Source: an uncultured Candidatus Saccharibacteria bacterium
Lineage (GTDB): Bacteria > Patescibacteriota > Minisyncoccia > Phycocordibacterales > JABMNX01
Reading direction: 5' to 3'
Assembly: GCA_964575755.1 (NCBI GenBank)
Contig: CAZNRH010000001.1
Location: forward strand, 17,100 to 81,099
Length of the DNA stretch: 64,000 nucleotides
Position 1 is the stretch's first letter. The number at the start of each line of letters is the position of its first letter. A program made the position numbers and the translations under genes. Shown here in pieces: positions 1,822-41,451 of the stretch. Under the pieces are notes generated by a model. The model was not told where the DNA came from. It saw only the letters and a program-made list of their open reading frames with translations, and made no database searches.

Positions 1822-2019
1822 TCTATGGAGCACTACACGTTGATTTAGAGCCGTTTTTACAGTATAATCTGGTCTAATTAGGTATTAAATAATACCTGTC
1901 CCGTTAGAGATAATAAAAGTTAACATGCTTAAAAACAACCATTTAACAACCAATACACAAGATTCATTACTTACATTAATTTGCAATTGTTCGTCGCAAG
2001 CGAACAATCTCTAACTGGG

Positions 2020-3222
2020 ATGAAACGAGTACTTATTTTCTCAATGGCATACCACCCCTTTGTTGGCGGTGCTGAAGTAGCAGTTAAAGAAATCACTAAT
2101 CGTATCCCTCAGAAGGATGCTGAGTTCCATATGGTTACTTTGCGCTTCAATTCAGACCTACCGAAAAAACAAAAGATAGGAAACATATTAGTACATCGCG
2201 TAGGCTTACCAATACCAAGAACAAAAGATTCAATATTCTGCAAAGCACTACTTTTCTTCAATAAATTCTATTTTCAATTTGCGTCAGTATTAAAAGCACT
2301 TTCACTTCACAGAGAATATTCATATGACGCAGTATGGTCTGTCATGGCACATTCTTCAGGAGTCCCAGGAGGTTTGTTTAAAATGTTTAAACCGAAAGTG
2401 ACATATCTTCTGACACTACAAGAAGGCGATCCAATCACACATATTAAAAAGGTAATGTTCCCAGTGTATCCTTTGTTTATACAAGGTTTTAGAAAAGCAG
2501 ATCGCATGCAGACAATCTCTACATATCTGGCAAAATGGGGGACAGATATGGGGTTCAAAGGTAAACCAATAATTATACCAAACGGAGTTGATGTAAAATT
2601 ATTTTCAAAAGAATACCCAAGAAGAGAGCTTGAGACACTAAAGCAAGAATTAGAGAAAAAAGTAAATTCAGTATTTCTAGTAACCACAGGTCGGCTCGTG
2701 AAGAAAAATGGTATAGACAGCATTATTAGAGCCATGTCATATTTACCAGAACACATTTCTCTTGTTTCAGTTGGAGATGGCCCTGACGAAGGTGAACTTA
2801 AAGCACTCGCACTTGAAGAGGGTGTAATGAGCCGTGTTCATTTTATTAAAGAAATAGACAATAAAGAAATTCCAAAATATTTAAAGATCTCAGATATATT
2901 TATACGACCTTCCCGTTCAGAGGGTATGGGCAATTCATTTATAGAAGCTATGGCAGCTGGTGTACCTATCATAGGCACGCAAGAGGGCGGTATTTCAGAT
3001 TTTCTTTTTGACCCAGATAGAAACAGAGATGTGAAGCCAACAGGGCTAGCGGTAAACGTCGACGATCCAAAAGGGATTGCAGAGGCTGTACTTAGGTACA
3101 GCAGTGACGTGCTACTACGTCGCGAGGTAACTGACAATGCCAAAGCTCTAGTTGATGCTCGGTACGATTGGAAAGTCATAGTTCCTGCAATGCGTAAGAA
3201 GTTTTTTAAACTGAGTAATTAA
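2020..3222 (+). CDS. Glycosyltransferase family 4 (GT-B fold)
   Basis: C-terminal EGMGNSFIEAMAAGVPIIGT motif typical of GT4/GT1 enzymes. The ATG at 2020 (MKRVLIF) is preferred over the TTG at 1981, which lies inside a hairpin-like inverted repeat (tgttcgtcgcaagcgaaca). Confidence 0.8.
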   Translation: MKRVLIFSMAYHPFVGGAEVAVKEITNRIPQKDAEFHMVTLRFNSDLPKKQKIGNILVHRVGLPIPRTKDSIFCKALLFFNKFYFQFASVLKALSLHREYSYDAVWSVMAHSSGVPGGLFKMFKPKVTYLLTLQEGDPITHIKKVMFPVYPLFIQGFRKADRMQTISTYLAKWGTDMGFKGKPIIIPNGVDVKLFSKEYPRRELETLKQELEKKVNSVFLVTTGRLVKKNGIDSIIRAMSYLPEHISLVSVGDGPDEGELKALALEEGVMSRVHFIKEIDNKEIPKYLKISDIFIRPSRSEGMGNSFIEAMAAGVPIIGTQEGGISDFLFDPDRNRDVKPTGLAVNVDDPKGIAEAVLRYSSDVLLRREVTDNAKALVDARYDWKVIVPAMRKKFFKLSN

Positions 3223-3266
3223 TGCTTGTCCTGTTAGAGGTTATTGTATGAAATATAATTAAAAAT

Positions 3267-4442
3267 ATGAATAAAAATAAAACTGAAATCTACAAAACAT
3301 CGACCAAGAAGAGCTCTAGTGGGATGAAAATCTTAATAGCAACACCATTATATGGATCTCAAATAGGCGGTCCGTCGACTTATGTAAAAATTCTCGAAAA
3401 GATGTTGCCGAAGTATGATATTTCCGTCGTAGTAGTTCCATTTAGTACAGTTTCTAGATGGCCTAAGATAATCAGCCATATATTATTCGGATATTACATA
3501 TTTAGAGCCAGCAAGGGTGTGGACATAATATATGCACTAGATCCAATTAGTGTTGGTATACCATCAGTACTTGTTGCAAAAGTCCTAAAGAAAAAGTTTT
3601 TTGTGCGCATAGCAGGCGACTATGCATGGGAGCAAGGAGTACAACGATTTAAAGTCAAAGACCATTTAGATGTATTTTCAAAAAAGACAGACGACTATTT
3701 TGTACCAGTACTTATACTTAAGAAATTACAAAAGATGGTCGCAGAGTCAGCAGAGAAGGTGATAGTGCCAAGTAATTATTTTAAAAGAATAATCACAAAT
3801 TGGGGAGTAGATAGTAAGAAAGTCAAAGTAATTCATTCAGTTGCAGAAGATGTTCCTTTTCAGGGCAGAAAGTCAGACTTAAGAAGCATGCTCAGTTTTG
3901 ACGGCAAGATAGTCGTAAGCGCAGGGCGACTCGTACCATGGAAAGGGTTTGAGGCGCTCATAGACATCACACCCAAGTTAGTAGAGAAGTACGGCTCATT
4001 TAAGCTACTGATAGCAGGAGACGGCCCACAGATGAAAAGCCTAAGCAAGATGGTAGTAAAGAAAAAGCTAGACAACTATGTAGCCATAACAGGTTCTCTA
4101 GAGCGCGAAGTGTTGTTTAAATACATACGTGTTGCAGACGTATTTGTACTCAATACAAACTACGAAGGTCTTTCACATCAGTTACTTGAAACCATATCTA
4201 TTGGCACACCTGTTATCACGACGGATGTAGGCGGTAACCCGGAGTTAATAGATGACAAAATAAACGGGCTTCTTGTAAGTTTTAACAACAAAAAGGAGTT
4301 ATACGAAAGTATAGTATCAGTGCTCGATAGCCAAACTCTGTCCGAAAAGCTTGTACGCAACGCAAAAACAAAACTCAAAAAGTTCAACTCCGAAGATATG
4401 GTCACAAAACTCATTAAAGAGTTTAATAAGAAAAATCATTAA
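3267..4442 (+). CDS. Glycosyltransferase family 4
   Basis: NTNYEGLSHQLLETISIGTPVITTDVGGNPELI sugar-donor-binding motif. Alternative start at 3324 (MKILIATP). Confidence 0.8.
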   Translation: MNKNKTEIYKTSTKKSSSGMKILIATPLYGSQIGGPSTYVKILEKMLPKYDISVVVVPFSTVSRWPKIISHILFGYYIFRASKGVDIIYALDPISVGIPSVLVAKVLKKKFFVRIAGDYAWEQGVQRFKVKDHLDVFSKKTDDYFVPVLILKKLQKMVAESAEKVIVPSNYFKRIITNWGVDSKKVKVIHSVAEDVPFQGRKSDLRSMLSFDGKIVVSAGRLVPWKGFEALIDITPKLVEKYGSFKLLIAGDGPQMKSLSKMVVKKKLDNYVAITGSLEREVLFKYIRVADVFVLNTNYEGLSHQLLETISIGTPVITTDVGGNPELIDDKINGLLVSFNNKKELYESIVSVLDSQTLSEKLVRNAKTKLKKFNSEDMVTKLIKEFNKKNH

Positions 4443-4490
4443 TTAAACACCTTGTTGGATAGATGTTTTTTTGTGAGATAATTACGTGTA

Positions 4491-4904
4491 ATGAGTACCA
4501 TAAAATTATCAGATTTTAATAAATGGAATAAAATAAAGAAAGATGTTTCTATGAAATTAATTTCACCAAATTGCAAAGCCAGAGAAGTTTGGTGGTGTAC
4601 TATTGGTAAAAATATTGGAGTAGAACAAAGCTGTAAAGACGATACTTTCTCTCGTCCAGTTCTAGTAATTAAAGTATTTAATAGAGATATGTTTTGGGGG
4701 TTACCAATAACTTCAAGTAATTCAAATGACAAAAAAAGTAATAGTAAATTTCATTATGACGTAAGTGGTGTACCAAAATTAAAAGGTTATGTAACAATTT
4801 CACAATTACGGACTTTTGATAATAAGCGATTAATAAGAAAAATAGTAAAAATAGAAAAAGAAATGTTGGAAGAAATAAAAGAGAAAATTATAGACATTCT
4901 ATAG
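4491..4904 (+). CDS. PemK/MazF-like endoribonuclease toxin fold, with an N-terminal extension; no obvious cognate antitoxin
   Basis: REVWWCTIGKNIGVEQ...RPVLVIKVFN...GLPITSS...YVTISQLRTFDNKRLIRKIVKI matches the MazF/PemK pattern (G.EQ.G.RP.lVis, P.Ts, Q.Rt.Dk.Rl). Confidence 0.5.
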   Translation: MSTIKLSDFNKWNKIKKDVSMKLISPNCKAREVWWCTIGKNIGVEQSCKDDTFSRPVLVIKVFNRDMFWGLPITSSNSNDKKSNSKFHYDVSGVPKLKGYVTISQLRTFDNKRLIRKIVKIEKEMLEEIKEKIIDIL

Positions 4905-4920
4905 TCTGTATAAAAGATCG

Positions 4921-4945
4921 AAACCCCACCAATTGGTGGGGTTTC
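4921..4945 (+). terminator. Hairpin aaaccccacc-aattgg-tggggtttc downstream of the mazF-like gene
   Basis: Perfect 9-bp GC-rich stem 16 nt after the stop codon. No strong T-run follows, so intrinsic terminator function is uncertain. Confidence 0.4.
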
Positions 4946-5106
4946 TCGGATCCTCCGAAAAGGAATAGTGTATGTACATTATACTTGTATAACACTAAAA
5001 GTCAAATGGTAGTATGTTAATAAAAAAGCCCCCAACAGAGACAAAATTCCGTAAGGGTCTTCTTCGTGGTGATAAATACATTATACATGTACAATAAATC
5101 CAAACA

Positions 5107-6036
5107 ATGAATTCCAGCAACAATAAAAAAATCCTAATGATAACAGGGGACAAAAACCTATTTATACAGGGTACTCCACCTTATGAGCGCCTAGAGATAC
5201 AAAAGGAGCATGCCGACATAACACCCGTATTCTGGGGACATGGAGCGCTCCTGGCACCACTTAAAGAACGTGGAGCGTTTGATACGGTCACCGTACAAGA
5301 CCCATTTTGGCGCGGATTAGTAGGATTATACATTTCCACATACAAGCGAGCTCGGTTTAATGTTCAGCTACACACAGACTTAAGCTCACAAAGTTTTATG
5401 CGTAGAATTATCGCAAAAGTAGTATTACGACGAGCGCACTCAATACGTGTAGTATCATCCAAATTAAAGACTCAAGTTGAAAGTCTTGGAGTAAAAGCAT
5501 CAATTAAAGTGCTACCAATTTACTTAGATATAGAGCGATTTACTTCTGTGTTGAAAGATAAAGACACAAATACAAAGAAAACAATATTATGGGTAGGGCG
5601 TTTCGAAAAAGAAAAAGACCCATCACTAGCCATCAAAACATTAAAAGAAGTCCGTGCAAAAGACATAGACGCAGAGCTTATTATGCTTGGCGAAGGAAGT
5701 CTAAAAGATAAACTAGAAAAAGAGTCCGAAGGACAGCCAATAACATTTCACGGCTGGAGTGACCCACTGAAATACCTAGCTAAAGCAGACGTACTACTCA
5801 ATACTTCACATTACGAAGGATACGGTGCCACTATCGTAGAGGCACTCGCATCAGGAATACCAGTAGTATCACTCGATGTGGGGATAGCGCGTGAAGCAGG
5901 TGCAACTATCGCCACATATGAAGGGTTTACTAATAAAGTAGTTGAAACACTCAACTCAAACAAACCCGCTGAACTCAAGATCCAAATCCTCTCTAAAGCA
6001 CAGTGGGGAGCACAATGGAAAGAAACCCTAGCCTAA
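5107..6036 (+). CDS. Glycosyltransferase family 4
   Basis: WVGRFEKEKDP ... HYEGYGATIVEALASGIPVVSLDVG motifs. Confidence 0.75.
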   Translation: MNSSNNKKILMITGDKNLFIQGTPPYERLEIQKEHADITPVFWGHGALLAPLKERGAFDTVTVQDPFWRGLVGLYISTYKRARFNVQLHTDLSSQSFMRRIIAKVVLRRAHSIRVVSSKLKTQVESLGVKASIKVLPIYLDIERFTSVLKDKDTNTKKTILWVGRFEKEKDPSLAIKTLKEVRAKDIDAELIMLGEGSLKDKLEKESEGQPITFHGWSDPLKYLAKADVLLNTSHYEGYGATIVEALASGIPVVSLDVGIAREAGATIATYEGFTNKVVETLNSNKPAELKIQILSKAQWGAQWKETLA

Positions 6037-6141
6037 AACTTCATTAAAGCAGTATTGAAGTCAGACTTTAACGGACAAGCAGACCCAAGCAGTCATTACG
6101 TCACTTGACTAAAGATAATCTAGAGATTATCATATAAATAT

Positions 6142-6390
6142 ATGAAAAATATAATTGGGTTAAGAGAGCTAAGAGAAAATACAGAGAAATACGTTTCTCA
6201 AGTAGGGAAAGGAAAGACGTTCACAGTAGTGCGTCGTTCAAAACCTATTTTCAATATAACCCCAGTAGACGAATGGGGAGACGAAGGTGTGTGGGAAACA
6301 GTAGTGGATTTCACCAAGATAAATCCAAAAGGAGTTCCCGCTAAAGATGTGTTGAAAGCATTAAAGGAAATAAAGAAGGAAAGAAAATAA
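6142..6390 (+). CDS. Putative type II antitoxin (Phd/YefM-like), immediately upstream of a RelE/ParE-like toxin
   Basis: 82 aa. IGLRELRENTEKYVSQVGKGKTFTVVRRSKPIFNITPV resembles the Phd/YefM N-terminal pattern. There is a 5-nt gap to the downstream toxin-like ORF. Confidence 0.45.
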   Translation: MKNIIGLRELRENTEKYVSQVGKGKTFTVVRRSKPIFNITPVDEWGDEGVWETVVDFTKINPKGVPAKDVLKALKEIKKERK

Positions 6391-6395
6391 GTACC

Positions 6396-6638
6396 ATGGA
6401 TAAAGCTAAGAAATTTCTTAGAAAGTTGCCTTTTGTTAAGCAAGACCAGATTAATGAAGTAGTATCTAAAATAGTTGCAGGTAAGATCAAAAATCTTGAT
6501 ATCAAAAAACTCAAAGGTCATAAAAACTCATTTAGAGTCCGGGTTGGCGATATAAGAATAGTCTTCTCGCAAGATAAAGAGGTTACACAGATACTTTTTA
6601 TAGGCAACAGAGAAAGTTCAAAGTACGAGCCATATTAA
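6396..6638 (+). CDS. RelE/ParE-family type II toxin
   Basis: 80 aa. LKGHKNSFRVRVGDIRIVFSQDKEVTQILFIGNRESSKY matches the RelE/ParE core (L.G....yRiRvGdyRiiY......v.il.i.hR...Y). Confidence 0.6.
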   Translation: MDKAKKFLRKLPFVKQDQINEVVSKIVAGKIKNLDIKKLKGHKNSFRVRVGDIRIVFSQDKEVTQILFIGNRESSKYEPY

Positions 6639-6678
6639 AAAACCCATGATCTTTAAGCTAAAAACTAGCACCTAACCA

Positions 6679-7710
6679 ATGAAATTACTTATCCTCACAC
6701 AAAAGATAGACTCCAGTGACCCTATATTAGGTTTTTTTGTGAGATGGGCGTTGGAATTCGCAAAACATTGCGAGAGTATTGTTCTTATTTGCCTATACGA
6801 AGGCGAACATAATTTACCAGACAATGTCCGTGTACTATCGCTAGGGAAAGAAGAAGGAGTATCACGACTCACATACTTAATCAGATTCTATAAATACATT
6901 TATCAAGAACGCAAAAACTACGACTCAGTTTTTGTCCACATGAACCAAATCTACATAATCCTCGGTGGATTATTTTGGCGTTTATGGAGTAAAAAGATAA
7001 GTTTATGGTATGCACATGGTGGTGTATCAATGTCATTAAAGATAGCAGTCTTATTTACTCATAATATTTTTACATCAACAAAAAGTGGTTTCCGATTAGA
7101 GACCAATAAAACAAAAATAGTAGGGCAGGGTATAGATATAGATTTATTTAACCTGAAAAATAAAAGTAATAATGAAAGGTTTGAGATTGTTTCAATTGGA
7201 AGAATCTCTCCAGTAAAAGATTACGAGACTTTAATTGAAGCAGTTAAAATATTATCAGAAGAAAATATAAACGTGACCATTATTGGTGATGCTGGTTTGG
7301 GTGAACAAGAAAAATATCTTTCTAATTTGAAAAAGATGGTAGTTAATAAGAGTTTAGAAAATAGAGTTCATTTTATTGGAGGTATGCCAAATAATGATAT
7401 AGTAAAGTATCTACAGAGAAGCGATTTATTTGTAAATACAAGCCATACAGGAAGTCTAGATAAGGCTATTTTAGAGGCAATGTCGACAGGCACTCCTGTT
7501 TTAACCTGCAACGAAGCCGTATTAGGGGTTTTAGGAGGGTATAAAGATATTTTAATGTTTCCAAAGAAGAGCCCTAAAAGACTAGCAGAAAAAATAAAGA
7601 ATATAGTAAACATGGAGAACAAGAAAGAATTAGGAAAATCACTAAGAAATATAGTGGTAGAGAATCATAGTCTAAATAATTTCGTTAAAAAAATAATGCA
7701 ATATGTCTAA
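6679..7710 (+). CDS. Glycosyltransferase family 4
   Basis: VNTSHTGSLDKAILEAMSTGTPVLTCN motif and GT-B architecture. Confidence 0.75.
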   Translation: MKLLILTQKIDSSDPILGFFVRWALEFAKHCESIVLICLYEGEHNLPDNVRVLSLGKEEGVSRLTYLIRFYKYIYQERKNYDSVFVHMNQIYIILGGLFWRLWSKKISLWYAHGGVSMSLKIAVLFTHNIFTSTKSGFRLETNKTKIVGQGIDIDLFNLKNKSNNERFEIVSIGRISPVKDYETLIEAVKILSEENINVTIIGDAGLGEQEKYLSNLKKMVVNKSLENRVHFIGGMPNNDIVKYLQRSDLFVNTSHTGSLDKAILEAMSTGTPVLTCNEAVLGVLGGYKDILMFPKKSPKRLAEKIKNIVNMENKKELGKSLRNIVVENHSLNNFVKKIMQYV

Positions 7711-8316: not shown

Positions 8317-9078
8317 ATGAATACAAAACACTCGTTTCCAAAAAACTATTTTAAAAGTGGGGTAAATACTAAAGTACAGAGCAAGGAAGAGTGTCTAGTT
8401 AATACTCCTGCGTTTCGAAGAACTTTTGTAGAGTTCATTGAGGCTTTGCCTAAAGACGCTGTTGTTCTTGACGCTGGGTGTGGCGGCGGAAAATTCTCTA
8501 GGAAGATTATTTCTTTGCGTCCAGATATCAAAATATATGCAATAGATATTAGTGATGTAGAAGATGTTTTGCCTAAGCAAATTACTTTTGTTCAAGGTTC
8601 TGTTGAAGATTTGAGAGATTATTACGAGGAGGGATTCTTTGATGCCGTTGTTTGTTTCCATGTATTAGAGCACTTGTTATATCCGATGTTAGCTATGAGT
8701 AGTTTTAAAAGCGTGTTAAAGAATGGCGGGAAAATTTATCTAGAAACTCCAAACTGGTCTCGGGGACTTGTTCCGTTTTTAGATACATATTTCTGGAATG
8801 ATTATACTCATATTAGAATTTTTACAAAAAAAACAATACGTAACTTATTTGAAGACTATGATTATAAAATACGCACCTTAATATCGGTCTCAAGTATGAC
8901 ACTTTTCACACGAAATGATTCGGTAAAAAAAATTAGTAATCTGTATAAAAAAGAAAAAGACAATAAAGGAAGTGTTTTTTCTTTCTTTAAAAGCTTTATT
9001 ACAAAGTCGCTTGCTCGAATAATTAGTGCTTTCTTGAAGGACGTCATTGTAATTATTGCTGATAGCGTTAAAAAATGA
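8317..9078 (+). CDS. Class I SAM-dependent methyltransferase
   Basis: VLDAGCGGGKFS motif I and DAVVCFHVLEHL motif. Confidence 0.7.
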   Translation: MNTKHSFPKNYFKSGVNTKVQSKEECLVNTPAFRRTFVEFIEALPKDAVVLDAGCGGGKFSRKIISLRPDIKIYAIDISDVEDVLPKQITFVQGSVEDLRDYYEEGFFDAVVCFHVLEHLLYPMLAMSSFKSVLKNGGKIYLETPNWSRGLVPFLDTYFWNDYTHIRIFTKKTIRNLFEDYDYKIRTLISVSSMTLFTRNDSVKKISNLYKKEKDNKGSVFSFFKSFITKSLARIISAFLKDVIVIIADSVKK

Positions 9079-10142
9079 AAAGAGAAGTAAAAAGGGTTAT
9101 ATATTTCAATAGTGGAGCAGTTGGAGAATTTCTTATGACGTTGTTTTTTATGATGAATATTAAGTCAGATCCTGCCAGCGACTCGCCAGAGTTCATAGTA
9201 TTTGTGCAGAAGAATAAAGGTGTTTTGATTGAACTAGCTGAGTTATTTTTCCCTTCTGTTAAAATAATCATTATAAATAAGAGGGATTTCATACATGGAG
9301 GGTTCAGTATTTTACGGTACATGTTTTCAAAAAACTGTATTGTGACACAGATGACCTTTGGGCAAGAGCGCACCATAGTAAAGGTTCTCGCACATCTCAT
9401 GGCTTTACGTAGTGGAAGTGTCTATATTGGTTGCAATGATGGTGTCAAGGTGAATAAGTATCTTTACTCACGTTTCTTTAACTTTAATCCAGATATATTA
9501 TTTTATGAGACTATGAATGAAATAGTAAAAGAGCTTGGTTTCATCCCTCATATTTCTTTCCCATATTTTAAGAGAGTTAAAGACCTTAGTAAGACAGAGC
9601 AGATAATATTAGAGAAATATGTTCTAAAAGAAAATAATTATCTCGTCCTGCATCCATTTGCGGCGAATTCACATCGTTCTTTCCCTGCTAGACGTTGGAA
9701 TGATATCATCAATAGTGTACTTAACGAACATAGTGACATAAAGATAGTTGTAACTGGTGCTCCTTCAGACGATAGCTTCGCTAGGGATATTTTATCAGGA
9801 ATCAATGATGAAAGAATTGTGAACCTTGTAGGAGTATTATCCATGGATGAACTTGTTTCTGTAATTAAACAGGCAAGTCTTTTTATAGGTGTTGATTCAG
9901 GAATTACGCACTTAGCTGGGGTACTACAAAAAAAGAGCGTGGTAATTGGTAATTATTCGAACCCTTGCTGGTTACCAGTATATAATAAACAAGCTGTCAT
10001 TCTTTTAAATCGCGACAGATGCGTTTGTAGTGGCAGAAAGACAGGGGATTGCTTCGTTCTCGATGGAGGTAATAAATATTACAGATGTATGATGGACATA
10101 AAAGATGAGAATATACTTAATTCTATACATCGGGTTTTGTAA
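9075..10142 (+). CDS. Glycosyltransferase family 9 (heptosyltransferase-like)
   Basis: LVLHPFAANSHRSFPARRWNDI...VGVLSMDELVSVIKQASLFIGVDSGITHLAGVL matches the GT9 signature (K.Wp...l.G...e...gk.sl.el.ali..a.l.vg.DSG.mHlAaA). Cys-rich C-terminus. Confidence 0.55.
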   Translation: MKREVKRVIYFNSGAVGEFLMTLFFMMNIKSDPASDSPEFIVFVQKNKGVLIELAELFFPSVKIIIINKRDFIHGGFSILRYMFSKNCIVTQMTFGQERTIVKVLAHLMALRSGSVYIGCNDGVKVNKYLYSRFFNFNPDILFYETMNEIVKELGFIPHISFPYFKRVKDLSKTEQIILEKYVLKENNYLVLHPFAANSHRSFPARRWNDIINSVLNEHSDIKIVVTGAPSDDSFARDILSGINDERIVNLVGVLSMDELVSVIKQASLFIGVDSGITHLAGVLQKKSVVIGNYSNPCWLPVYNKQAVILLNRDRCVCSGRKTGDCFVLDGGNKYYRCMMDIKDENILNSIHRVL

Positions 10143-10243
10143 TTAGTGCATGCTTTTTATGCTCGACCGTTGATACTTGTTACTTTTTCTTTCAAGTTCA
10201 TGTTTAAGAGGTTTATAGACTACTAAGTTAATCAAAGATATTT

Positions 10244-11344
10244 ATGAGTGACAGCAAAGAAAAGAATGTTATTTCATTATATATACCAAAATACTTGATT
10301 CAAGACGAAGGATATCATTACTCTATATTACTGTACCCTTTTTGGGGAGTGCAAAACATGAAAGACAGGTTTGCAAGTATTGAGACGTTTAAAAGACAAA
10401 ATTTTGATTCCTCGTATTACAGTCTTACTGAAGACAGTGATTCCGCAGATTATGTATTTCTGCCATACAGTTATTGGTATCTTATGAGACGTAACCCTAA
10501 ATTGATTTCGTTATACATGAAGGAAGCTAGGTTGCTAAACAAACCACTTTTGATAGATGCAATTGGAGATTCGATGAAAGAAATCACTATTCCAAATAGT
10601 GTAGTTTTACGATATGCGTCATATAGGAAAATTCTAAAGGATAACGATGTTATAGTACCAGTTTTTTCAGATGATTTGCTAGTAGCGCATAAAGGAGGAG
10701 AGCTTATAATAAAAGAAAAATCTAAGAAACCTATTATTGGGTTTAGCGGATGGGTTTCGTTTACCTTTTTAACGTTACCACGTTCGTATATTAGAAATGC
10801 GCACTTGCTTTTTTTAGGAATGTTTATACCATACTTTAGAGCACGTATAAAAGGAATTTTCCTTCGTAAGAAGGTCCTTAATATATTAAAGAAATCAAAA
10901 TTGATTGTACCTAACTTTCAAGAGAGAGAATCATACTCAGGAAATTCAAAAACAGCAAAAGGTGATGTAAATATATTACGCAGGGAATTTGTTCAAAATA
11001 TTCTAGAGTCAGATTATACATTATGTATACGAGGAGATTCTAATCAGTCCACTCGCTTTTTTGAAGTACTATCTTTGGGTAGGATTCCGATTTTTGTGGA
11101 CACTGACATACCACTACCTTTAGAAGATAAAATAAACTACAAAGAGTTTTGTATTTTTGTCGACTATCGAGATATCGACAGAATTGATAAAATTATTAAC
11201 GAGTTTCACAATTCTATTTCATTTAATGAATTTGAAAATATGCAGAGAAAAGCCCGTAAGGCTTATGAGATGTATTTAAGGATGGACGTATATACAAAAT
11301 ACCTCATGGAGATTCTAAAAGAAAAGTCTAAAAATAAGGCTTGA
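10244..11344 (+). CDS. Exostosin-like (GT47-like) glycosyltransferase, putative
   Basis: CIRGDSNQSTRFFEVLSLGRIPIFVDTDIPLPLEDKINYKEFCIFVD resembles the exostosin C-terminal motif (RL.EAL..GCIPVI..D...LPF...iDw..fsv.v). Confidence 0.4.
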   Translation: MSDSKEKNVISLYIPKYLIQDEGYHYSILLYPFWGVQNMKDRFASIETFKRQNFDSSYYSLTEDSDSADYVFLPYSYWYLMRRNPKLISLYMKEARLLNKPLLIDAIGDSMKEITIPNSVVLRYASYRKILKDNDVIVPVFSDDLLVAHKGGELIIKEKSKKPIIGFSGWVSFTFLTLPRSYIRNAHLLFLGMFIPYFRARIKGIFLRKKVLNILKKSKLIVPNFQERESYSGNSKTAKGDVNILRREFVQNILESDYTLCIRGDSNQSTRFFEVLSLGRIPIFVDTDIPLPLEDKINYKEFCIFVDYRDIDRIDKIINEFHNSISFNEFENMQRKARKAYEMYLRMDVYTKYLMEILKEKSKNKA

Positions 11345-11376
11345 TATAGTCTTTATTGACAGCTATACTCACTTCC

Positions 11377-13032
11377 ATGAACATACTCGCTATAAATCAG
11401 ATTCCAAGCCAAATTTCATGGCAGCACGATAGTGCGGCAGCTTTAGTTATGGATGGTAAATTTATAGCCACAGCTGAAGAAGAGCGTTTTAATCGCCTTC
11501 GTCATGCTAGGGGATATCCTAAATTAGCTGTTGAATATTGTTTAAAAGAGGGTGGTATTAAAATGAGAGATGTTGATATTATAGCCGTAGCATACGATCC
11601 ACTAGCTTTTGTTAAGACTGGAAGGATAAACTTATACCCAACAAACTTTATTAAAGATATAGTAAATTATATTTTCTTTGCTATATATCTACATGACTTA
11701 AAAAAGCAATGTGGAGCAAGGGTTGAGTATATAAATCACCATCTATCACATGCTGCGAGTGCATATCGTTGCTCTGGGTTTAAAGACGCAAATATATTAA
11801 CCATTGATGGATCAGGAGAAACAGAAAGTTTTGCTTTCTTTAAAGGGAAAGGAGGAAAATTAGAGAGAGTGTGGGACATACCTCTAGGTGGGAGATTTAC
11901 GGAGAAGAAGTGGGGTTCAATTGGTCTCGTATATTCTCGTCTTACTAACTTCTTGAATCTCGGAGTACACGGAGAAGGAAAAACAATGGGACTAGCAAGT
12001 TATGGGGAACCAAAATATGATTTTTCGACAATTTTAAATATTAAAGATCATAAACATTACAAAATAGATCGCAGAAACATAGAAAAGTTGTACGGAAATC
12101 TAGAAAGGAAAGATGGTGAAGAATTAACCCAAGAACATAAAGACTTAGCAGCGAGCCTACAAAAAGCACTAGAAGATTCAGTTGTGAATCTGGCTAGAGA
12201 GGCGTATGAAAAAACTGGTATTAGGAATTTTTGCTTGGCTGGTGGGGTCACGCTTAACTGTAATACTAATAGTAAGCTTTTGGAGCAGGATTTTTGTGAC
12301 AAGTTATTTATACAACCAGCAGCACATGATGGGGGAATATCACTTGGTGCAGCATTGGAAGTCTCTTATATAGTAGGGGACAACCCAGACTTTAATCTTA
12401 TTCATGCATATTGGGGGCCAGGGTTCTCAAATGAAGAAATAGAAGAGGTTCTTAAAAACGCAAAAGTAGAGTATAAATATCATAATAATATTGAAGAAAT
12501 TACTGCAAAATATGTAACAGACGGTAATATGGTCGGTTGGTTTCAAGGACGTATGGAAATGGGTCCAAGAGCTTTGGGTAACAGGACGATTCTTGCCGAT
12601 CCGACGATAAAAGATATAGCAGATAAGGTAAATGTCGAAATAAAACACAGAGAAGTATGGAGACCTTTCGCACCCTCTGTTGCTGAAGAAAGTGCGACAA
12701 AATTCTTTGAAGGAGTAGATAAGGCAAAAGACAGCCCTTTCATGCTACATACTTTTTATATAAAAGATAAATACAAAGATACTTTCCCTGCAATTACTCA
12801 TGTAGATGGCAGTAGTAGGATACAAACAGTGAGAAAAGAACAAAATGAAAAATATTATAAACTTCTAAAGGAAATAGAGAAGATTAATGGTTATCCAATG
12901 ACTTTGAATACCTCATTTAATGACAATGGTGAGCCAATTGTGTGTACTCCAAGAGACGCTCTTCGTTGTTTCTTCTCAACAGGCTTCGATGTTTTAGTAA
13001 TCGGGGATTATCTTGTAAAGAAAAATGGATAA
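11377..13032 (+). CDS. Carbamoyltransferase (NodU/CmcH/TobZ family)
   Basis: N-terminus MNILAINQ...HDSAAALV.DGK.IA.AEEERFNR.RHARGYP...HHLSHAASAY is the hallmark of the O-carbamoyltransferase kinase-like domain, followed by a large C-terminal domain. Start moved to the ATG at 11377. Confidence 0.8.
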   Translation: MNILAINQIPSQISWQHDSAAALVMDGKFIATAEEERFNRLRHARGYPKLAVEYCLKEGGIKMRDVDIIAVAYDPLAFVKTGRINLYPTNFIKDIVNYIFFAIYLHDLKKQCGARVEYINHHLSHAASAYRCSGFKDANILTIDGSGETESFAFFKGKGGKLERVWDIPLGGRFTEKKWGSIGLVYSRLTNFLNLGVHGEGKTMGLASYGEPKYDFSTILNIKDHKHYKIDRRNIEKLYGNLERKDGEELTQEHKDLAASLQKALEDSVVNLAREAYEKTGIRNFCLAGGVTLNCNTNSKLLEQDFCDKLFIQPAAHDGGISLGAALEVSYIVGDNPDFNLIHAYWGPGFSNEEIEEVLKNAKVEYKYHNNIEEITAKYVTDGNMVGWFQGRMEMGPRALGNRTILADPTIKDIADKVNVEIKHREVWRPFAPSVAEESATKFFEGVDKAKDSPFMLHTFYIKDKYKDTFPAITHVDGSSRIQTVRKEQNEKYYKLLKEIEKINGYPMTLNTSFNDNGEPIVCTPRDALRCFFSTGFDVLVIGDYLVKKNG

Positions 13033-13894
13033 AAATTTTAATATTGATTTTATAGGAGTTGGTTTTTCTCGTTGTGGCACTACGTGGATTGCTAAATGTT
13101 TACAGGAGCATCCAGAGATTTGCACGCCAGAATGGAAAGAGACTCATTTCTTTGATTTTGACTATAATTACAATAAAGGGCTAGATTTCTATAAATCTTT
13201 TTTTAAGGATTGTGAAGGAAAAGTCACAGGAGAATATTGCCCTGAATATATTTATGAAGAGAAAGCACTTCAAAGGATAAAGAAACATTTTCCTAATGCT
13301 AAAATTATCGTCTCTGTTCGTAATCCAACTGATCGTGCATTCTCTCATTTTTTATACGGTAAAAGAAAAAATAAATACGCAAATGAATTCAGTGAATTAT
13401 TTAAAACAGATCCTCGTGAAGTAATTGATAGAAGTAAGTATGCAGAATATATAACTACGGCGTATAAATATTTTGCTCCGAAGAACGTACTCATAGTTGT
13501 TCACGATGACTATAAAAATAATCCGAAAGAATTTATACAAAACATGTATAAGTTTCTTGAAGTAGATGGTGAATTTATACCACCATCGCTATTAATTGAG
13601 ATGAATAAATCAAAAGATTTACGGTATAAATTTAATTGGTTTGAACAATTATTTACAGATAGAATGAGAAAAAAGAAGCGCTTATTTTGGAGAATTATAA
13701 TAGGAGTTTTGAAGTTCTTTAAGATTAGCTCACTTCTTATTTTTTTAAGAGGGGAAAATAAAAACACTAATTCTTCTAACGAAGATGAGTTTATTTCAAA
13801 TAACGACAGAAATAGATTAAGAAAAATATATAAAAATGATATCGAAAGCCTAGAAAAAATATTAAAAAGAGACTTAAGTGTATGGAAAAATTAA
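13025..13894 (+). CDS. Sulfotransferase family protein
   Basis: 5'-PSB motif GVGFSRCGTTWIAKCL and 3'-PB motif VRNPTDRAFSHF. Confidence 0.7.
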   Translation: MDKNFNIDFIGVGFSRCGTTWIAKCLQEHPEICTPEWKETHFFDFDYNYNKGLDFYKSFFKDCEGKVTGEYCPEYIYEEKALQRIKKHFPNAKIIVSVRNPTDRAFSHFLYGKRKNKYANEFSELFKTDPREVIDRSKYAEYITTAYKYFAPKNVLIVVHDDYKNNPKEFIQNMYKFLEVDGEFIPPSLLIEMNKSKDLRYKFNWFEQLFTDRMRKKKRLFWRIIIGVLKFFKISSLLIFLRGENKNTNSSNEDEFISNNDRNRLRKIYKNDIESLEKILKRDLSVWKN

Positions 13895-15039
13895 AAAATC
13901 CAAACAGAAATATCTTTCTTATATATCAAGGACGTTTTCCTAGTGAAATGGCCGCAGCCCTGTTTGCTGCAAAAAGTTGCGAGTCCTTTGCTGAAGTTGA
14001 CAATAAAGTAACAATGTTAGTTCCACGCAGATTAGGTAGAGTTAAAGATGATCCTTTTAAATACTATAAAATTAAGAATAATTTTAAAGTAGTACATCTC
14101 CCAGTTATTGATTTATTCAAAGTTCCATTCTTAAATTATGTAGCATTTGTTTTGAATCACATTACGTTCGCGGTATCGTGTCTAGTTTACTTGCTTTTGC
14201 GTGCCAATAAAGAAGATGTTATTTATTCAAATGAAACGTTACCACTACTTCTCCCTGCTTATTTTTTTAAGAATTCATTATATGAAGTACATAATTATCC
14301 AGAAAGAAATCTCTTCATGTATAAAAGACTTTTTGCACACATGAGATGGATTCTGGTAACTAATAGGTGGAAATTAGAAAAATTAGTAGAGCAATTTAAT
14401 TTACCACAAGGGAAATCATTTTATGAGCCAAATGCTGTTGAAATAGAGGAATTCGATATCCCAGTTTTTAAAGAGGAAGCCCGTAGGAAACTCAACCTCT
14501 CAATTAATAAAAAACTCGTAGTCTATACAGGGCATCTATATAGCTGGAAGGGAGCTGATACACTTGCGCATGCCGCTACATTACTTACAGATGACTACTC
14601 AGTACTCTTTGTGGGCGGAACGAAACATGACCTTAAAAGGTTTAAAGATGAATTTGGCAGTATAACGAATGTACAGTTTATTGGACATCGTCCACATCCA
14701 GAGGTTCCATTATGGCAAAAAGCAGCAGATGTATTAGTTCTTCCAAACACTGCAAAAGAAGATATTTCAAAATACTACACTTCTCCAATGAAGCTTTTTG
14801 AATATATGGCGAGTAAGCGTCCAATAGTTGCTTCGCGTATACCCTCTATTGTTGAAATCCTTAATGATGAGAATGCTGTTTTGGTTGAGCCAGATAACCA
14901 CAAAGCACTTTCTGATGGTATTATGAAGGTGTTAAACGATGGATCATTGTCAAAACGTCTTAATAGTAAAGCTTTTAAGGACATACAGTTTCACTCGTGG
15001 CACGCACGCGCCTTGCGCATAATGAAGGAAATAAATTAA
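13882..15039 (+). CDS. Glycosyltransferase family 4
   Basis: VVYTGHLYSWKGADTL ... EYMASKRPIVASRIPSIVEIL. Confidence 0.75.
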   Translation: MEKLKNPNRNIFLIYQGRFPSEMAAALFAAKSCESFAEVDNKVTMLVPRRLGRVKDDPFKYYKIKNNFKVVHLPVIDLFKVPFLNYVAFVLNHITFAVSCLVYLLLRANKEDVIYSNETLPLLLPAYFFKNSLYEVHNYPERNLFMYKRLFAHMRWILVTNRWKLEKLVEQFNLPQGKSFYEPNAVEIEEFDIPVFKEEARRKLNLSINKKLVVYTGHLYSWKGADTLAHAATLLTDDYSVLFVGGTKHDLKRFKDEFGSITNVQFIGHRPHPEVPLWQKAADVLVLPNTAKEDISKYYTSPMKLFEYMASKRPIVASRIPSIVEILNDENAVLVEPDNHKALSDGIMKVLNDGSLSKRLNSKAFKDIQFHSWHARALRIMKEIN

Positions 15040-27371: not shown

Positions 27372-27560
27372 ATGGCAGCAAAAAAACGAAAAGTTGCAAA
27401 ACGAAAAGTTGCAAAGCGAAAGCCAGCAAAACGTAAAGCAGCAAAGAGGAAGCCTGCAAAGCGTAAAGCAGCTAAACGAAAGCCTGCAAAGCGTAAGGCA
27501 GCAAAAAGGAAGCCTGCAAAGCGTAAGGCAGCAAAAAGGACCACCCGACGACGACGATAG
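27372..27560 (+). CDS. Lysine/alanine-rich histone H1-like (Hc1/AlgP-tail-like) DNA-binding protein
   Basis: 62 aa of KRK(P/V)AK(R)KAA decapeptide repeats. Built from ~30-nt tandem DNA repeats. The two antisense ORFs are low complexity and are rejected. Confidence 0.55.
   Translation: MAAKKRKVAKRKVAKRKPAKRKAAKRKPAKRKAAKRKPAKRKAAKRKPAKRKAAKRTTRRRR
27399..27545 (+). repeat. Tandem ~30-nt repeats (aaacg[a/t]aagc[c/a]gcaaagcg...) encoding the KRKPAKRKAA units
   Basis: Visible periodicity: gcaaaacgtaaagcagcaaagaggaagcct / gcaaagcgtaaagcagctaaacgaaagcct / gcaaagcgtaaggcagcaaaaaggaagcct. Confidence 0.6.
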
Positions 27561-37232: not shown

Positions 37233-37518
37233 TATATAATTATCGTATTTAAACGCCATCTCGTTAAAACGAGGTGGTGTTTTGTATCAGTATAAGAAGA
37301 TTATCCAATACTACTAACTTTATACATGTTAGTACGACCTAGTTTGTAGTTCGTCAGTCCAGACTATCTTTACTTTAAAACATTTTTTATTATTTTAATT
37401 TTCTTGTTCTCTTAATATTTATTAAAAGACAAATCTAAAAGACTTTTCCACAAACAAAAAGACATGTCCTTAAGAAAATGTTGTAGAATGTAGTTAAATC
37501 GTGTTAGCGACCATAGGT

Positions 37519-40500
37519 ATGAGTAAAGAAGTTTTTTTCAATAACAAAAAATATTTATCTTCTAAAGATGCCGGCAATCAGGCTGGTTATACTCACGACT
37601 ATATTTCTAGATTATGTCGAGAGAGGAGAATCCCAGGTGAGAAAGTGGGTGGATCTTGGTATGTAGAGGCTGAACCTTTCTTCATTTTTTTGGATGAACA
37701 AAAAAATAAAAAAAGTGAAAGTAATAAGAACTTATCAAAAGAGTGTAAGCAGAATTATAAAAAGACAACTGAAGAATATGAGGAACAAGTAATGTCACGT
37801 TTAGAATTACCAGAATTCCCAAAATATCTTTTACAAGAAGTAACAGCTGTAGTAATTTCTATTGTTTTAGTTTTTGGTGTGTACTTCGCAAAAGATTCTT
37901 TGTATGTTCGAGATGTAATTGATTCATCACAATCAAACATTTCTAGAATTTATGAAGACACAAATGATTCCGTAAATACATTCAGAGAATTATTTACATA
38001 TAAAAATATTGCAAATAGCACATTGAAAGTTGTTACATCAGGAAGCAATATTATCGAACAAGGGTTAGTTCGTTATTATTCTTTTATTAATACTTCTGGA
38101 GAAGTAGTTGTGGCAACTTCACACAAAGTAAAAGAAATAAAAAGACAAGTTACTGTTGAGAATATTAAAACTACCACCACAAATAAGGTTACTAAAATCG
38201 TTGCCCTTGTTTCTGAAAGGGTAAAAAAATTAAACCAAGATATAAAAAACGTAGCGCATAAAATCAAATATACATTTACAAAAGAAAATACATTGACTTT
38301 AGTATCTTCTACTAAAAATTACATAGTGTCATCTGCGAGCTCTGCGGTATTTAACACACAGTTAGCTATGACAAGCGCCCAAGGAGCACTTATAAGTGCC
38401 CCAGAGTTTATCGGACGATTTATCGAGGGTATCAGGGTGCGTTTAGTTAGTTGGCTTAACGTCAATGATGTTAAAACACCTTTTGCCACTGTTACTGAAA
38501 AAGACGATACCGCAGTATTAATAACCCAACCAACTATAAAAAGAGTAATAGAGACACAGCATGTAGTAGTACAGTCAGGTATAACGGAGTCGTTTGTATT
38601 AACTAAGCTAGAACAGTTAAACAACAAGCTAAAGTCAGAAATCTATAAACTCTCTTCAATAAACGCAGGTAATATCGTCAACAACTACAATGTAATCTCT
38701 CAAACTAACAAGATAGATAAACTTAAAGGGGTTGCAATCACAGGGTCTACGTTTACTGACGGTACTATTAGTGGAAGTACATCATTTTCTGGTACAACAG
38801 GCTCTTTCAGTGGAGCGGTATCAGTAGCATCACTTACCGTAACAGGAGATACAACCTTGAGTGGAAGCCTTTCATTAGGTGGACTTACTGTAGATACCGC
38901 AGGGCTTGTATATCTCTCCTCCTCATCAAATGTTGGAATTGGTACATCGACACCATACGCAAAACTTTCGGTTGTGGGTCCAGTAGTAGGAGAGTATTTT
39001 CACGCCACATCAACCACCGCCACCTCAACCTTTGCAGGAGCTCTCCTAGTAACTCGTGCACCAACAGTAGCCCACACATTTTCGTCATGGGTTACGGGCG
39101 CTTCAAACTCAGCACTCTTTGACGCTTCTCTTGTCATTAATCCAACTACAGCTACAGCAGACTCTAACTTAATTTCTGCAGCAGTGGGTGGCTCCGTACG
39201 TTTCTTAGTAGACGCAGAAGGTGACGTATTCGTGAAAAATCTTACTTCAGTTGGTTCTGTAACATTGTCCACCACATCTGCATCCTCTTTTACTGTTGAG
39301 GGTAATACAACATTGGGGGATGCAATCACAGACACCACAACAATCAATGGAACACTCACGGTTACTGGTGCGACAAGTGTATCAACAGTTGATGGAAACT
39401 TCGGAGTCGGAACTACGTCCCCGTGGGCACGCCTTTCAGTATCTGGTGTTGCAGGTGCAAGTACACCTCTGTTTTCAATCTCTACCACAACAGCAGGCAA
39501 CGCAACAAGTACTGCCATCTTTGTTGATGAAAACGGAAAATTTGGTATCGGTACTACATCACCATTCGCACAGCTCTCGGTGGCGGGCAACGGACTCTTT
39601 AGTGGTACACTCACGACTACCAATCTAATAGCAAGCAGTATTTCTACATTGAACTCACTTTCTTTAACTGGTCTCGCTACATTTACAAATGGATTTATTT
39701 CACAAGCTTCCTCAACCATCTCAAGTGGTGGACTCACAACAGTTGGTTACTCCACAACAACCAAAGCACTTGTTGTACAAGGTGCCTCGGCAACTTCAAC
39801 ATTCGCAGGCGGTCTTGCAGTAGAAACCTCAGGATTTGTGTACGATTACAGTACGAATAGAGTTGGAATTGGTACCACTTCACCACTAGCCAAGCTCGAT
39901 ATATACGGCGACATAATTTTGTCAGGGACAGACAGACACTTAAACTTTGGTGATACATCAGGAACAAATGGTTACGGTTTCCGTGACAACTCAGGCACAA
40001 TGCAATTCAAAGACTCAGCAGGAGCATGGGCTGCTTTTGGTTCAGGAGGAGGTTCAGACATTTTTTCTCTAACAGACGCAACAACAGTAGAAGCAACCAC
40101 AACAAATGCAGGCATCAGTCTTAAATTAGATTACTTCACTGCCACTTCAACAACCGCAACTTCAACCTTTGCCGGCGGTCTTGCAATTGAAACATCAGGA
40201 TTAGTCTATGATTATTCTACTGGAAATGTTGGTATAGGTACTGCGAGTCCAACACAAGCTCTTGATGTTGGAAGCGGTAACATAACCACTACAGGCACAC
40301 TAGCGGCTGGTGCGACGACACTTAATGGTCAGACAATAGTTGGTGGGACAGGTTCTGTATCTGTAGGTAGTTTGGTTGGTGAATTACAGGTTCAAAAAAC
40401 TGGGACAAATGTAGCCGCATTTTCTGCTTATGAAAACTTTACTAGTGGCGCAGGTCTTGTTCTCGGCCATTCTCGTGGGACATCTATAGGTGCATTTAAT

Positions 40501-41451
40501 ACCGTTATTACAGGAGATGGAGTTGGACATATTGATTTTGCAGCAGCTGACGGAACAGACTTAAATAATCTAGCTGCAAGTATCCTTGTATCTGTTGAGG
40601 GTACAATAGCAGGGAACAGGACTCCAGGTAAGATTGAGTTCCAAACAGGAGCTGATGCTGCTGGCTCCGCACTTACCACCGCCCTCACCCTAGACTCCAG
40701 TCAGAACTCTACGTTTGCTGGTACCATAGGTTCTGACATAATAACTATTACATCAGCAAGTGACCAAAAACTTATACTTGCTGGTTCAGCTTCTCCTAGG
40801 TTAACTCTGACACCAACTAGCGGGGATGAATTTAGCATTCAAAACAACACAGGAGTCTTAAAATTCACAAATAATACAGATAGCGACAGGGTTGATTTAA
40901 CGATAGATGGAGATGGCAATGTTGGCATTGGAACTTCAACCCCATGGGGCAAGCTTTCAGTTGAGATGGACACAGTAAACCCTTCATTTGTAGTATCAAA
41001 TCAAGGCTCATCAACTCCAGCACTATACATAAGTGGAGTAAACCAAGATGGAGTTATTGGTATTGGTACAAAAGGAGGCTCAGGCAGGCGACTTGATGTA
41101 TTTGACGCTGGGAATCCTCAGCTTCGTCTATCGCAGACGAGCAGTATCTTCACGAACTTCCAAGTCGCCGCATCAACAGGAGACCTCACGATTGACCTTA
41201 ATCCAAACACAAGCGCGACAGATATATACATGACGCAAACAGGCGGTACTACTGGCGCAAACCTGCGTGTATGTGAAGGAACAGCATGTCCAAGTGTAGT
41301 AATCAATAACGGTGGTAATGTGCTTGTAGAAAACGCAGTCTATTTTGGCAACGGCTTCCGCATAGACCAAGTAGTAGGCACAACCACAGAGATAGCGGTC
41401 TACGGTGTAACATCAACCACAACCCCAATCATCATTTTTGATGAGTTCTAG
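37519..41451 (+). CDS. Giant membrane-anchored protein: N-terminal excisionase-type HTH, single TM, ~1180-aa extracytoplasmic Thr/Ser/Gly-rich region with tail-fibre-like (V/I)GIGT(T/S)SP.AKL.V repeats
   Basis: KKYLSSKDAGNQAGYTHDYISRLCRERRIPGEKVGGSWYV (HTH_17-like), TM LLQEVTAVVISIVLVFGVYFA, then at least seven copies of the GIGTTSP(W/F/L)A(K/R/Q)L(S/D)V motif and duplicated FAGGLA(V/I)ETSG(F/L)VYDYST blocks. Start may be the TTG/GTG at 37501. Confidence 0.5.
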   Translation: MSKEVFFNNKKYLSSKDAGNQAGYTHDYISRLCRERRIPGEKVGGSWYVEAEPFFIFLDEQKNKKSESNKNLSKECKQNYKKTTEEYEEQVMSRLELPEFPKYLLQEVTAVVISIVLVFGVYFAKDSLYVRDVIDSSQSNISRIYEDTNDSVNTFRELFTYKNIANSTLKVVTSGSNIIEQGLVRYYSFINTSGEVVVATSHKVKEIKRQVTVENIKTTTTNKVTKIVALVSERVKKLNQDIKNVAHKIKYTFTKENTLTLVSSTKNYIVSSASSAVFNTQLAMTSAQGALISAPEFIGRFIEGIRVRLVSWLNVNDVKTPFATVTEKDDTAVLITQPTIKRVIETQHVVVQSGITESFVLTKLEQLNNKLKSEIYKLSSINAGNIVNNYNVISQTNKIDKLKGVAITGSTFTDGTISGSTSFSGTTGSFSGAVSVASLTVTGDTTLSGSLSLGGLTVDTAGLVYLSSSSNVGIGTSTPYAKLSVVGPVVGEYFHATSTTATSTFAGALLVTRAPTVAHTFSSWVTGASNSALFDASLVINPTTATADSNLISAAVGGSVRFLVDAEGDVFVKNLTSVGSVTLSTTSASSFTVEGNTTLGDAITDTTTINGTLTVTGATSVSTVDGNFGVGTTSPWARLSVSGVAGASTPLFSISTTTAGNATSTAIFVDENGKFGIGTTSPFAQLSVAGNGLFSGTLTTTNLIASSISTLNSLSLTGLATFTNGFISQASSTISSGGLTTVGYSTTTKALVVQGASATSTFAGGLAVETSGFVYDYSTNRVGIGTTSPLAKLDIYGDIILSGTDRHLNFGDTSGTNGYGFRDNSGTMQFKDSAGAWAAFGSGGGSDIFSLTDATTVEATTTNAGISLKLDYFTATSTTATSTFAGGLAIETSGLVYDYSTGNVGIGTASPTQALDVGSGNITTTGTLAAGATTLNGQTIVGGTGSVSVGSLVGELQVQKTGTNVAAFSAYENFTSGAGLVLGHSRGTSIGAFNTVITGDGVGHIDFAAADGTDLNNLAASILVSVEGTIAGNRTPGKIEFQTGADAAGSALTTALTLDSSQNSTFAGTIGSDIITITSASDQKLILAGSASPRLTLTPTSGDEFSIQNNTGVLKFTNNTDSDRVDLTIDGDGNVGIGTSTPWGKLSVEMDTVNPSFVVSNQGSSTPALYISGVNQDGVIGIGTKGGSGRRLDVFDAGNPQLRLSQTSSIFTNFQVAASTGDLTIDLNPNTSATDIYMTQTGGTTGANLRVCEGTACPSVVINNGGNVLVENAVYFGNGFRIDQVVGTTTEIAVYGVTSTTTPIIIFDEF

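Follow-up and report, generated by a model that had tools for sequence, protein, structure and literature searches.

A compact toxin-antitoxin pair of probable Phd/YefM-RelE type in a glycosyltransferase locus of an uncultured Candidatus Saccharibacteria bacterium

The stretch of 64,000 nucleotides that spans positions 17,100 to 81,099 of the forward strand of contig CAZNRH010000001.1 from an uncultured Candidatus Saccharibacteria bacterium (assembly GCA_964575755.1), in the following called the window, contains at positions 6142 to 6638 two small adjacent genes within an array of glycosyltransferase (GT) genes. These two genes form a genuine type II toxin-antitoxin (TA) pair of an ordinary kind, composed of a Phd/YefM-type antitoxin and a minimal RelE-type toxin. 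A first-pass annotation based on the letters alone had described an 82-aa and an 80-aa open reading frame (ORF) separated by 5 nt, had recognized a RelE/ParE core in the second frame and had noticed that the pair interrupts a run of GT4 genes, all of which is borne out by the ORF list, the sequence and the match of the flanking genes to Pfam Glycos_transf_1. The pair and its control elements are arranged as follows:

6142 to 6390, forward strand: antitoxin ORF, 82 aa, ATG start
6396 to 6638, forward strand: toxin ORF, 80 aa, ATG start
6105 to 6133, forward strand: sigma-70-like promoter with TTGACT at 6105-6110, a 17-nt spacer and TATCAT at 6128-6133, 10 of 12 matches in a promoter scan
6114 to 6131, no strand: putative operator, a perfect palindrome GATAATCT-AG-AGATTATC, that is, an inverted repeat overlapping the spacer and the -10 box

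The two ORFs are separated by the 5 nt GTACC (6391-6395), and the core of the toxin reads KLKGHKNSFRVRVGDIRIVF ... R72 ... Y77.

The upstream gene, which had been called antitoxin-like, is of the Phd/YefM type by family and by fold. In the profile search that had been proposed as a check, its product scores 26.9 bits against NCBIfam TIGR01552 (prevent-host-death antitoxin family), above the cut-off of 20.8, and 25.2 bits (1.4e-5) against Pfam PF02604 (PhdYeFM_antitox), below the gathering score of 29.8. An indexed protein search recovered 516 homologues, most of them 79-93 aa long and most with a precomputed PF02604 match, several of which are named 'prevent-host-death family antitoxin'; those names that are informative about the taxon all refer to Patescibacteria (Kaiserbacteria, Campbellbacteria, Paceibacterota and the Parcubacteria group). 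An AlphaFold2 (AF2) model built on 32 homologues, with a mean predicted local distance difference test score (pLDDT) of 75, consists of a strand (residues 3-6), a helix (7-22), two strands (27-31 and 34-39) and a further helix (67-81), with residues 45-66 modelled at low confidence. Its N-terminal half matches in Foldseek the N-terminal domain of M. tuberculosis VapB46 with a TM-score of 0.9 as well as P1 Phd and YefM, and the sequence profile equally finds VapB46 in the PDB (E=0.011). The match to a curated model is thus accompanied by the N-terminal beta-alpha-beta-beta fold of the Phd/YefM family, and residues 3-45 are modelled as the DNA-binding and dimerization domain of this type. The low-confidence segment 45-66 followed by the helix 67-81 would fit folding upon binding to the toxin.

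The C-terminal half of the antitoxin carries an acidic motif, PVDEWGDEGxWE...DF...GVP, which is nearly invariant across the family, with its core at residues 45-58 (window 6274-6315). Single-sequence and profile searches of the PDB detected neither a relative of this C-terminal half, including the PVDEWGDEGxWE motif, nor any similarity of the antitoxin to archaeal RelB. The mean column identity amounts to 62% in the antitoxin family versus 42-46% in the toxin family, such that the antitoxin is the better conserved partner. C-terminal regions of antitoxins normally evolve fast, and an antitoxin that is better conserved than its toxin is unusual for TA pairs.

The downstream gene, for which a RelE/ParE-type toxin had been proposed, is RelE-like by PHROG family, sequence profile and fold. 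The protein matches PHROG 1213 'RelE-like toxin' with 1.3e-9, and one of the 28 homologues found by the indexed search is named 'RelE/ParE family toxin'. An exhaustive hidden Markov model (HMM) search, run over 1.84 billion representatives that each stand for one 50%-identity cluster, assigned 811 of them to the toxin family at E<=1e-10 and 4845 when the threshold was relaxed to E<=1e-3. Pfam ParE_toxin (PF05016) is matched by 66 of 140 diverse representatives of the family, at best with 3.4e-9. Toxin-family profiles identify in the PDB M. jannaschii RelE3 (3bpq_B; 1.6e-7 and 1.2e-8), P. horikoshii aRelE (1wmi_A; 1e-4 and 6e-6) and, with E about 0.008-0.02, E. coli RelE. The AF2 model of the toxin (pLDDT 82, predicted TM-score 0.69) shows two helices (residues 2-9 and 13-28) followed by a three- to four-stranded sheet (36-38, 45-50, 53-60 and 63-71). 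Ranks 1-7 of the Foldseek search with this model, all at probability 1.00, are occupied by RelE3, M. tuberculosis RelE1 and RelE2 and T. thermophilus RelE, with 3bpq_B at rank 1 and a TM-score of 0.69. A significant match to a curated family and a microbial-RNase-like fold with helices packed on an antiparallel sheet, which characterize the RelE/ParE superfamily, are thus both present.

Within this superfamily, the conserved residues point to the RelE subfamily. Among the 140 representatives, R47 is invariant and K6, K37, K38, L39, G41, R49, G51, R54, R72 and Y77 are each conserved in at least 90%, and no conserved His or Glu is found; the window copy has retained all the conserved residues. 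HMM alignments equate the arginines of the window toxin with the following positions:

R47: K52 of E. coli RelE, R58 of aRelE
R49: R56 of E. coli RelE, next to K54 across a 2-residue indel, R60 of aRelE
R54: R61 of E. coli RelE, R65 of aRelE
R72: R81 of E. coli RelE, R85 of aRelE

In E. coli RelE, K52 or K54 serves as the general base and R81 as the general acid, with Y87 positioning the substrate (PMC5027501), and arginines at corresponding positions occur in other RelE homologues (PMC4989188). Basic residues equivalent to K52/K54, R61 and R81 plus a C-terminal Tyr, as expected for the RelE subfamily, are found, and because these residues are nearly invariant, an mRNA endonuclease of the RelE type appears more likely than a gyrase poison of the ParE type.

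The two genes occur together well beyond the window. In every homologue context examined a Phd-type gene is located directly 5' of a toxin gene of the same family, with toxin-profile HMM scores of 67-133 bits. Synteny with glycan genes in relatives, which the first-pass annotation had named as an argument against a TA assignment, is not observed; the pairs of relatives adjoin murC, ftsH, secY/adk, nusA and tRNA-editing genes, with the following neighbours in the individual loci:

L004: a gene with a tRNA-editing domain (tRNA_edit) and Exo_endo_phos
L007: MurC and SNase
L008: FtsH and an unknown gene
L012: SecY and adenylate kinase (Adk), with the cassette at 3001-3475 of this locus, within the ribosomal-protein cluster of a patescibacterial contig
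L013: a T2SSE ATPase gene and NusA
L015 and L016: a Mg-chelatase-like gene and TrmB

The neighbours differ in every locus and the distribution is patchy and independent of context. Equally, the DNA similarity between the window, L007 and L004 starts abruptly at the -35 hexamer (~6105) and ends at the toxin stop codon at 6638, with unrelated flanks, which delimits a cassette of ~534 bp (6105-6638) that includes its own promoter. The genes are 5 nt apart in L004 and 4 nt apart in L007 and overlap by 8-38 nt in L008, L012, L013 and L016; a short gap or overlap of this kind is typical of genes with presumptive translational coupling. Small, adjacent and co-oriented genes with a short gap or an overlap, which are kept as a pair, have the organization of a type II TA operon.

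Compared with two orthologous cassettes, the ratio of nonsynonymous to synonymous substitution (dN/dS) lies at 0.03-0.04 in the antitoxin gene and at 0.05-0.12 in the toxin gene; synonymous sites are saturated, and both genes are under strong purifying selection. The pair does not consist of chance ORFs because there are 28 toxin and 516 antitoxin homologues, 811 toxin cluster representatives and a dN/dS of 0.03-0.12. Searches for copies on plasmids and phages by tblastn against PLSDB and INPHARED retrieved only sequences of 31-38% identity at E ~1e-4, IMG/VR contained three partial matches to the toxin (residues 19-57) and no match to the antitoxin, and a six-frame translation of the window, scanned with HMMs, yielded no second copy of either family. 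Altogether, the pair is a self-contained cassette, conserved as a unit across many Patescibacteria in unrelated contexts.

The control region is equally part of this unit. Taken by itself, the promoter-like match is not significant in the AT-rich region, with 9 such matches found versus 8.9 expected, and the promoter call therefore rests on conservation across loci. The arrangement of -35 hexamer, spacer and -10 hexamer recurs in the independent loci L004, L007, L008, L012 and L013, with a degenerate -35 hexamer (TTGTAT) in L016. The shared layout consists of TTGACW, a 16-17-nt spacer with two GATWAWC-like half-sites 11 bp apart and a -10 hexamer TATCAT, TAAACT or TAATCT. In the window, the antitoxin ATG lies 8 nt 3' of the -10 box, and in all seven loci the ATG follows 6-8 nt past the -10 hexamer. 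Since neither a leader nor a Shine-Dalgarno sequence would fit into this distance, the transcript of the cassette is probably leaderless.

The putative operator contains two GATWATC half-sites 11 bp apart. The pattern GATWATC-N4-GATWATC occurs only this once in the 64-kb window, even if one mismatch is allowed, with 0.06 occurrences expected. When the window is aligned with L007 and L004 at the DNA level, none of the operator bases varies, although the synonymous sites of the genes are saturated, and related paired half-sites are found in L008, L012, L013 and L016. By analogy to characterized TA operons, this suggests that the promoter of the cassette may be autoregulated through binding of the antitoxin to the half-sites. 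No terminator-like site is predicted between the toxin stop codon at 6638 and the start of the next GT gene at 6679, and thus read-through from the cassette promoter into the GT genes is possible. No Rfam family is matched at its gathering score in or near the cassette.

With these features the cassette can be compared with characterized systems. Among solved structures, those most similar to the toxin in profile and fold come from the archaeal RelBE systems, M. jannaschii RelB3-RelE3 (3bpq) and P. horikoshii aRelB-aRelE (1wmi), with which it shares the small size and the common core K-L-K/R-G ... (Y/F)R(V/A)R(V/L)GD(I/Y)R. However, the window toxin is only ~25% identical to RelE3, its host is a bacterium of the Patescibacteria and its antitoxin is of the Phd/YefM type with its own N-terminal DNA-binding domain. 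The system shares with E. coli RelBE (RelE structures 4v7j, 4v7k and 4fxe) the superfamily and fold of the toxin, the aligned basic residues, the C-terminal Tyr and the order of the operon with the antitoxin first, whereas the match to E. coli RelE is weak and the window toxin is 15 residues shorter, with a hairpin shortened by 2 residues and no modelled C-terminal helix. E. coli RelB, moreover, is a ribbon-helix-helix protein and not of the Phd/YefM type.

The combination of an antitoxin of the Phd/YefM fold with a ribosome-dependent RNase of the RelE superfamily is shared with YefM-YoeB and with M. tuberculosis RelBE1 and RelBE2 (2a6q, 9g12 and 3g5o), and chains of these complexes are found in Foldseek by both the toxin and the antitoxin model. 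A palindromic promoter operator is expected for this class. In contrast to these modules, the N-terminal domain of the antitoxin has the short form, nearest to VapB46, and the C-terminal PVDEWGDEGxWE part is without detectable counterpart. The window toxin family, with RelE-like arginines and no conserved His or Glu, likewise differs from YoeB, which does not possess the lysine and arginine residues of RelE and uses His83 as the general acid (PMC5027501). The likeness to Phd-Doc of phage P1 is confined to the N-terminal domain of the antitoxin, which has the Phd fold (3hs2 and 4zm0; TM-score ~0.6, 26% identity); the toxin is RelE-like and not a Fic/Doc kinase. Phd binds to palindromic operator sites.

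The pair is thus very probably a chromosomal type II TA module of the Phd/YefM-RelE type. By analogy to RelBE, YefM-YoeB and Phd-Doc, an antitoxin dimer would bind to the two GATWATC half-sites over the spacer and the -10 box and thereby repress its own, probably leaderless, transcript, with translation of the toxin being coupled to the antitoxin gene. The acidic segment DEWGDEGxWE and the C-terminal helix of the antitoxin might enfold the toxin and thereby cover its arginine-rich side. Upon cessation of antitoxin supply or degradation of the antitoxin, the free toxin would enter the ribosomal A site and cleave the mRNA, whereupon translation would halt. Candidate residues for cleavage are R47/R49 (K52/K54 in RelE), R54 (R61), R72 (R81) and Y77 (probably Y87).

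Several observations speak against this assignment. The single toxin sequence reaches only 21.5 bits (3.6e-4) against Pfam ParE_toxin (PF05016), just below the gathering score of 23, and has no match in NCBIfam. The last 9 residues of the toxin are modelled with low confidence and the AF2 model of the 80-aa protein is without the C-terminal helix of E. coli RelE. Furthermore, Y77 is situated outside the stretch that aligns to E. coli RelE, and its probable equivalence to Y87 derives from spacing only, with 5 residues from R72 to Y77 versus 6 from R81 to Y87. Finally, PADLOC has no match for the pair, which leaves a role in defence unsupported.

Among other explanations, the cassette might constitute a distinct 'minimal RelE' system specific to Patescibacteria, which moves as a bare unit of ~530 bp, is transcribed leaderless with spacer and -10 box as operator and has a better conserved antitoxin with a motif unmatched in solved antitoxins. 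It would insert into intergenic gaps, even within the ribosomal-protein/secY-adk cluster, without recognizable integrase, repeats or target-site duplication. The cassette is mildly unusual in its minimal toxin of 80 aa, its better conserved antitoxin with an invariant acidic motif and its compact, probably leaderless promoter-operator, as well as in the lack of a visible mobility signature despite its many insertion contexts. If this rather unlikely explanation holds true, these features could reflect a new mode of neutralization or a second role of the antitoxin in ultra-small bacteria.

A gyrase poison of the ParE type would still make a type II TA pair, yet one that blocks replication. This identity of the toxin takes its plausibility from the name of the sole Pfam family matched, ParE_toxin (PF05016), a model that also covers RelE-like proteins, and from the match of 4 of the 140 family members to the models ParE_like or ParE-like_toxin. 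Nevertheless, the PDB matches of the toxin-family profiles comprise RelE proteins only and no ParE chain, the PHROG match is named RelE-like, and in Foldseek, with RelE proteins at ranks 1-7, the first ParE structure (8c26_A) appears at rank 43 with a probability of 0.41. In addition, the basic residues equivalent to the catalytic set of RelE are nearly invariant in the family, and ParE toxins are not known to have these residues. With RelE proteins as nearest relatives and conserved RelE-type arginines, the toxin does not have the characteristics of the ParE subfamily, and a ParE-type activity is considered very unlikely.

The pair could also be a leftover that is inactive or has been domesticated, for example as a transcription regulator with its cofactor, which no longer poison the cell and might regulate the downstream GT genes. 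Transcripts of the cassette may read into these genes, with no terminator predicted between 6638 and 6679, and the higher conservation of the antitoxin (62% vs 42-46%), unusual for TA pairs, could be interpreted in the same direction. This is still less probable, with all conserved toxin residues intact in the window copy and the toxin under purifying selection (dN/dS 0.05-0.12), and the unrelated genes that adjoin the pair in relatives leave no specific link to glycan genes. That the two ORFs are components of the glycan pathway or chance ORFs in AT-rich DNA, for which only their position in the GT array and on the same strand could be put forward, is refuted by hundreds of homologues with a conserved length of 78-82 aa, by family and fold matches to TA proteins and by the lack of GT synteny in relatives, including distant GT loci (L010 and L017) without the pair, and retains a practically negligible probability.

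A Phd/YefM-RelE module being the preferred assignment, its place in the glycan locus can be considered. The GT4-type genes around the pair, which lies on the same strand as the array, are:

1981 to 3222: GT4-type gene with a Pfam Glycos_transf_1 match
3267 to 4442: GT4-type gene, Pfam Glycos_transf_1
5107 to 6036: GT4-type gene 5' of the pair, Pfam Glycos_transf_1
6679 to 7710: GT4-type gene 3' of the pair, Pfam Glycos_transf_1
13882 to 15039: GT4-type gene with a Pfam Glycos_transf_1 match

For the three GT genes nearest to the pair, from 3267 to 7710, the Pfam matches range from 1e-22 to 3e-34. The glycan locus extends over ~2-15.7 kb and includes further GT4, GT9-like and GT47-like enzymes, several methyltransferases, a carbamoyltransferase and a sulfotransferase. 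A search of GTDB representative genomes and JGI metagenomes for close relatives of the GT encoded at 6679-7710 brought up only matches of 26-43% identity, none of which is accompanied by the pair; it is absent from the distantly related GT loci L010 and L017. Judged by its position among the GT genes, the pair appears to have been inserted incidentally between two genes of a variable cell-surface locus and not to take part in glycan synthesis. The cassette might serve addiction, phage defence or stabilization of the locus, or have none of these roles; the first-pass annotation had suggested that it may stabilize the island or mark an insertion hotspot.

The locus as such has some further peculiarities. 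Tailoring functions are unusually many (394-1821 and 9075-13894), with GT9-like and GT47 (exostosin)-like transferases, a carbamoyltransferase, a sulfotransferase and at least three S-adenosylmethionine-dependent methyltransferases, and a secreted-type protein with LTD and PKD domains is encoded 5' of the locus. A second toxin-like gene is found between the first two GT4 genes, one gene 5' of the TA pair:

4491 to 4904, forward strand: PemK/MazF-like toxin gene, 137 aa

It matches Pfam PemK_toxin (9e-13) and the PHROG 'MazF-like growth inhibitor' (7e-19). The gene is solitary, with no evident antitoxin ORF and only 48 nt to the upstream gene, and has a G+C content of 0.27-0.29 versus ~0.40 in its neighbours. 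In a Campbellbacteria metagenome-assembled genome, a homologue of 62% identity follows dnaB, also without an antitoxin. Together with the Phd-RelE cassette, the MazF-like gene suggests that this part of the GT array tolerates insertions, and the occurrence of this low-G+C gene in the neighbouring intergenic gap fits, but does not prove, a permissive and variable region.

The intergenic region 4905-5106 that follows the MazF-like gene contains a perfect palindromic G+C-rich hairpin (4920-4945), which could terminate transcription on both strands, and a strong promoter-like site on the minus strand (TTGACT-16-TATAAT, 5005 to 4978), which points at it. Because this promoter-like site faces the hairpin, the two elements could yield a small RNA of ~55 nt, transcribed convergently to the MazF-like gene. 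The sole Rfam match for 4905-5106 is sub-threshold (rnk_pseudo, 38 bits versus a gathering score of 55). Farther away in the window, three additional ORFs stand out:

27372 to 27560, forward strand: 62-aa ORF of nearly exclusively tandem (P/A)AKRK(A/V)AKRK repeats, extremely basic and histone-H1-like, in the 650-nt gap from a MurB-like gene to secA
37501 to 41451, forward strand: very large ORF, 1316 aa
43465 to 47175, forward strand: very large ORF, 1236 aa, Thr/Ser/Gly-rich and preceded by a 134-aa Thr-rich ORF

With respect to existing knowledge, close homologues of the two proteins are already automatically annotated as prevent-host-death antitoxin or RelE/ParE toxin in public records, and the module is a standard, uncharacterized type II system that does not change the current understanding of TA systems. 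The view of the first-pass annotation that in a very small genome every TA module is notable is weakened, as the toxin and antitoxin family is very common in Patescibacteria and TA genes in candidate-phyla bacteria have already been reported (PMC4742961). On the other hand, reduced genomes had been expected to be poor in TA systems (PMC12455944). What the analysis contributes is that the annotation of two small genes in a cell-surface glycan locus is settled as an accessory TA cassette and not as glycan enzymes, that the conserved compact promoter-operator of this subfamily is directly testable, and that one Phd/YefM-RelE subfamily occurs widely among Patescibacteria even though their genomes are reduced.

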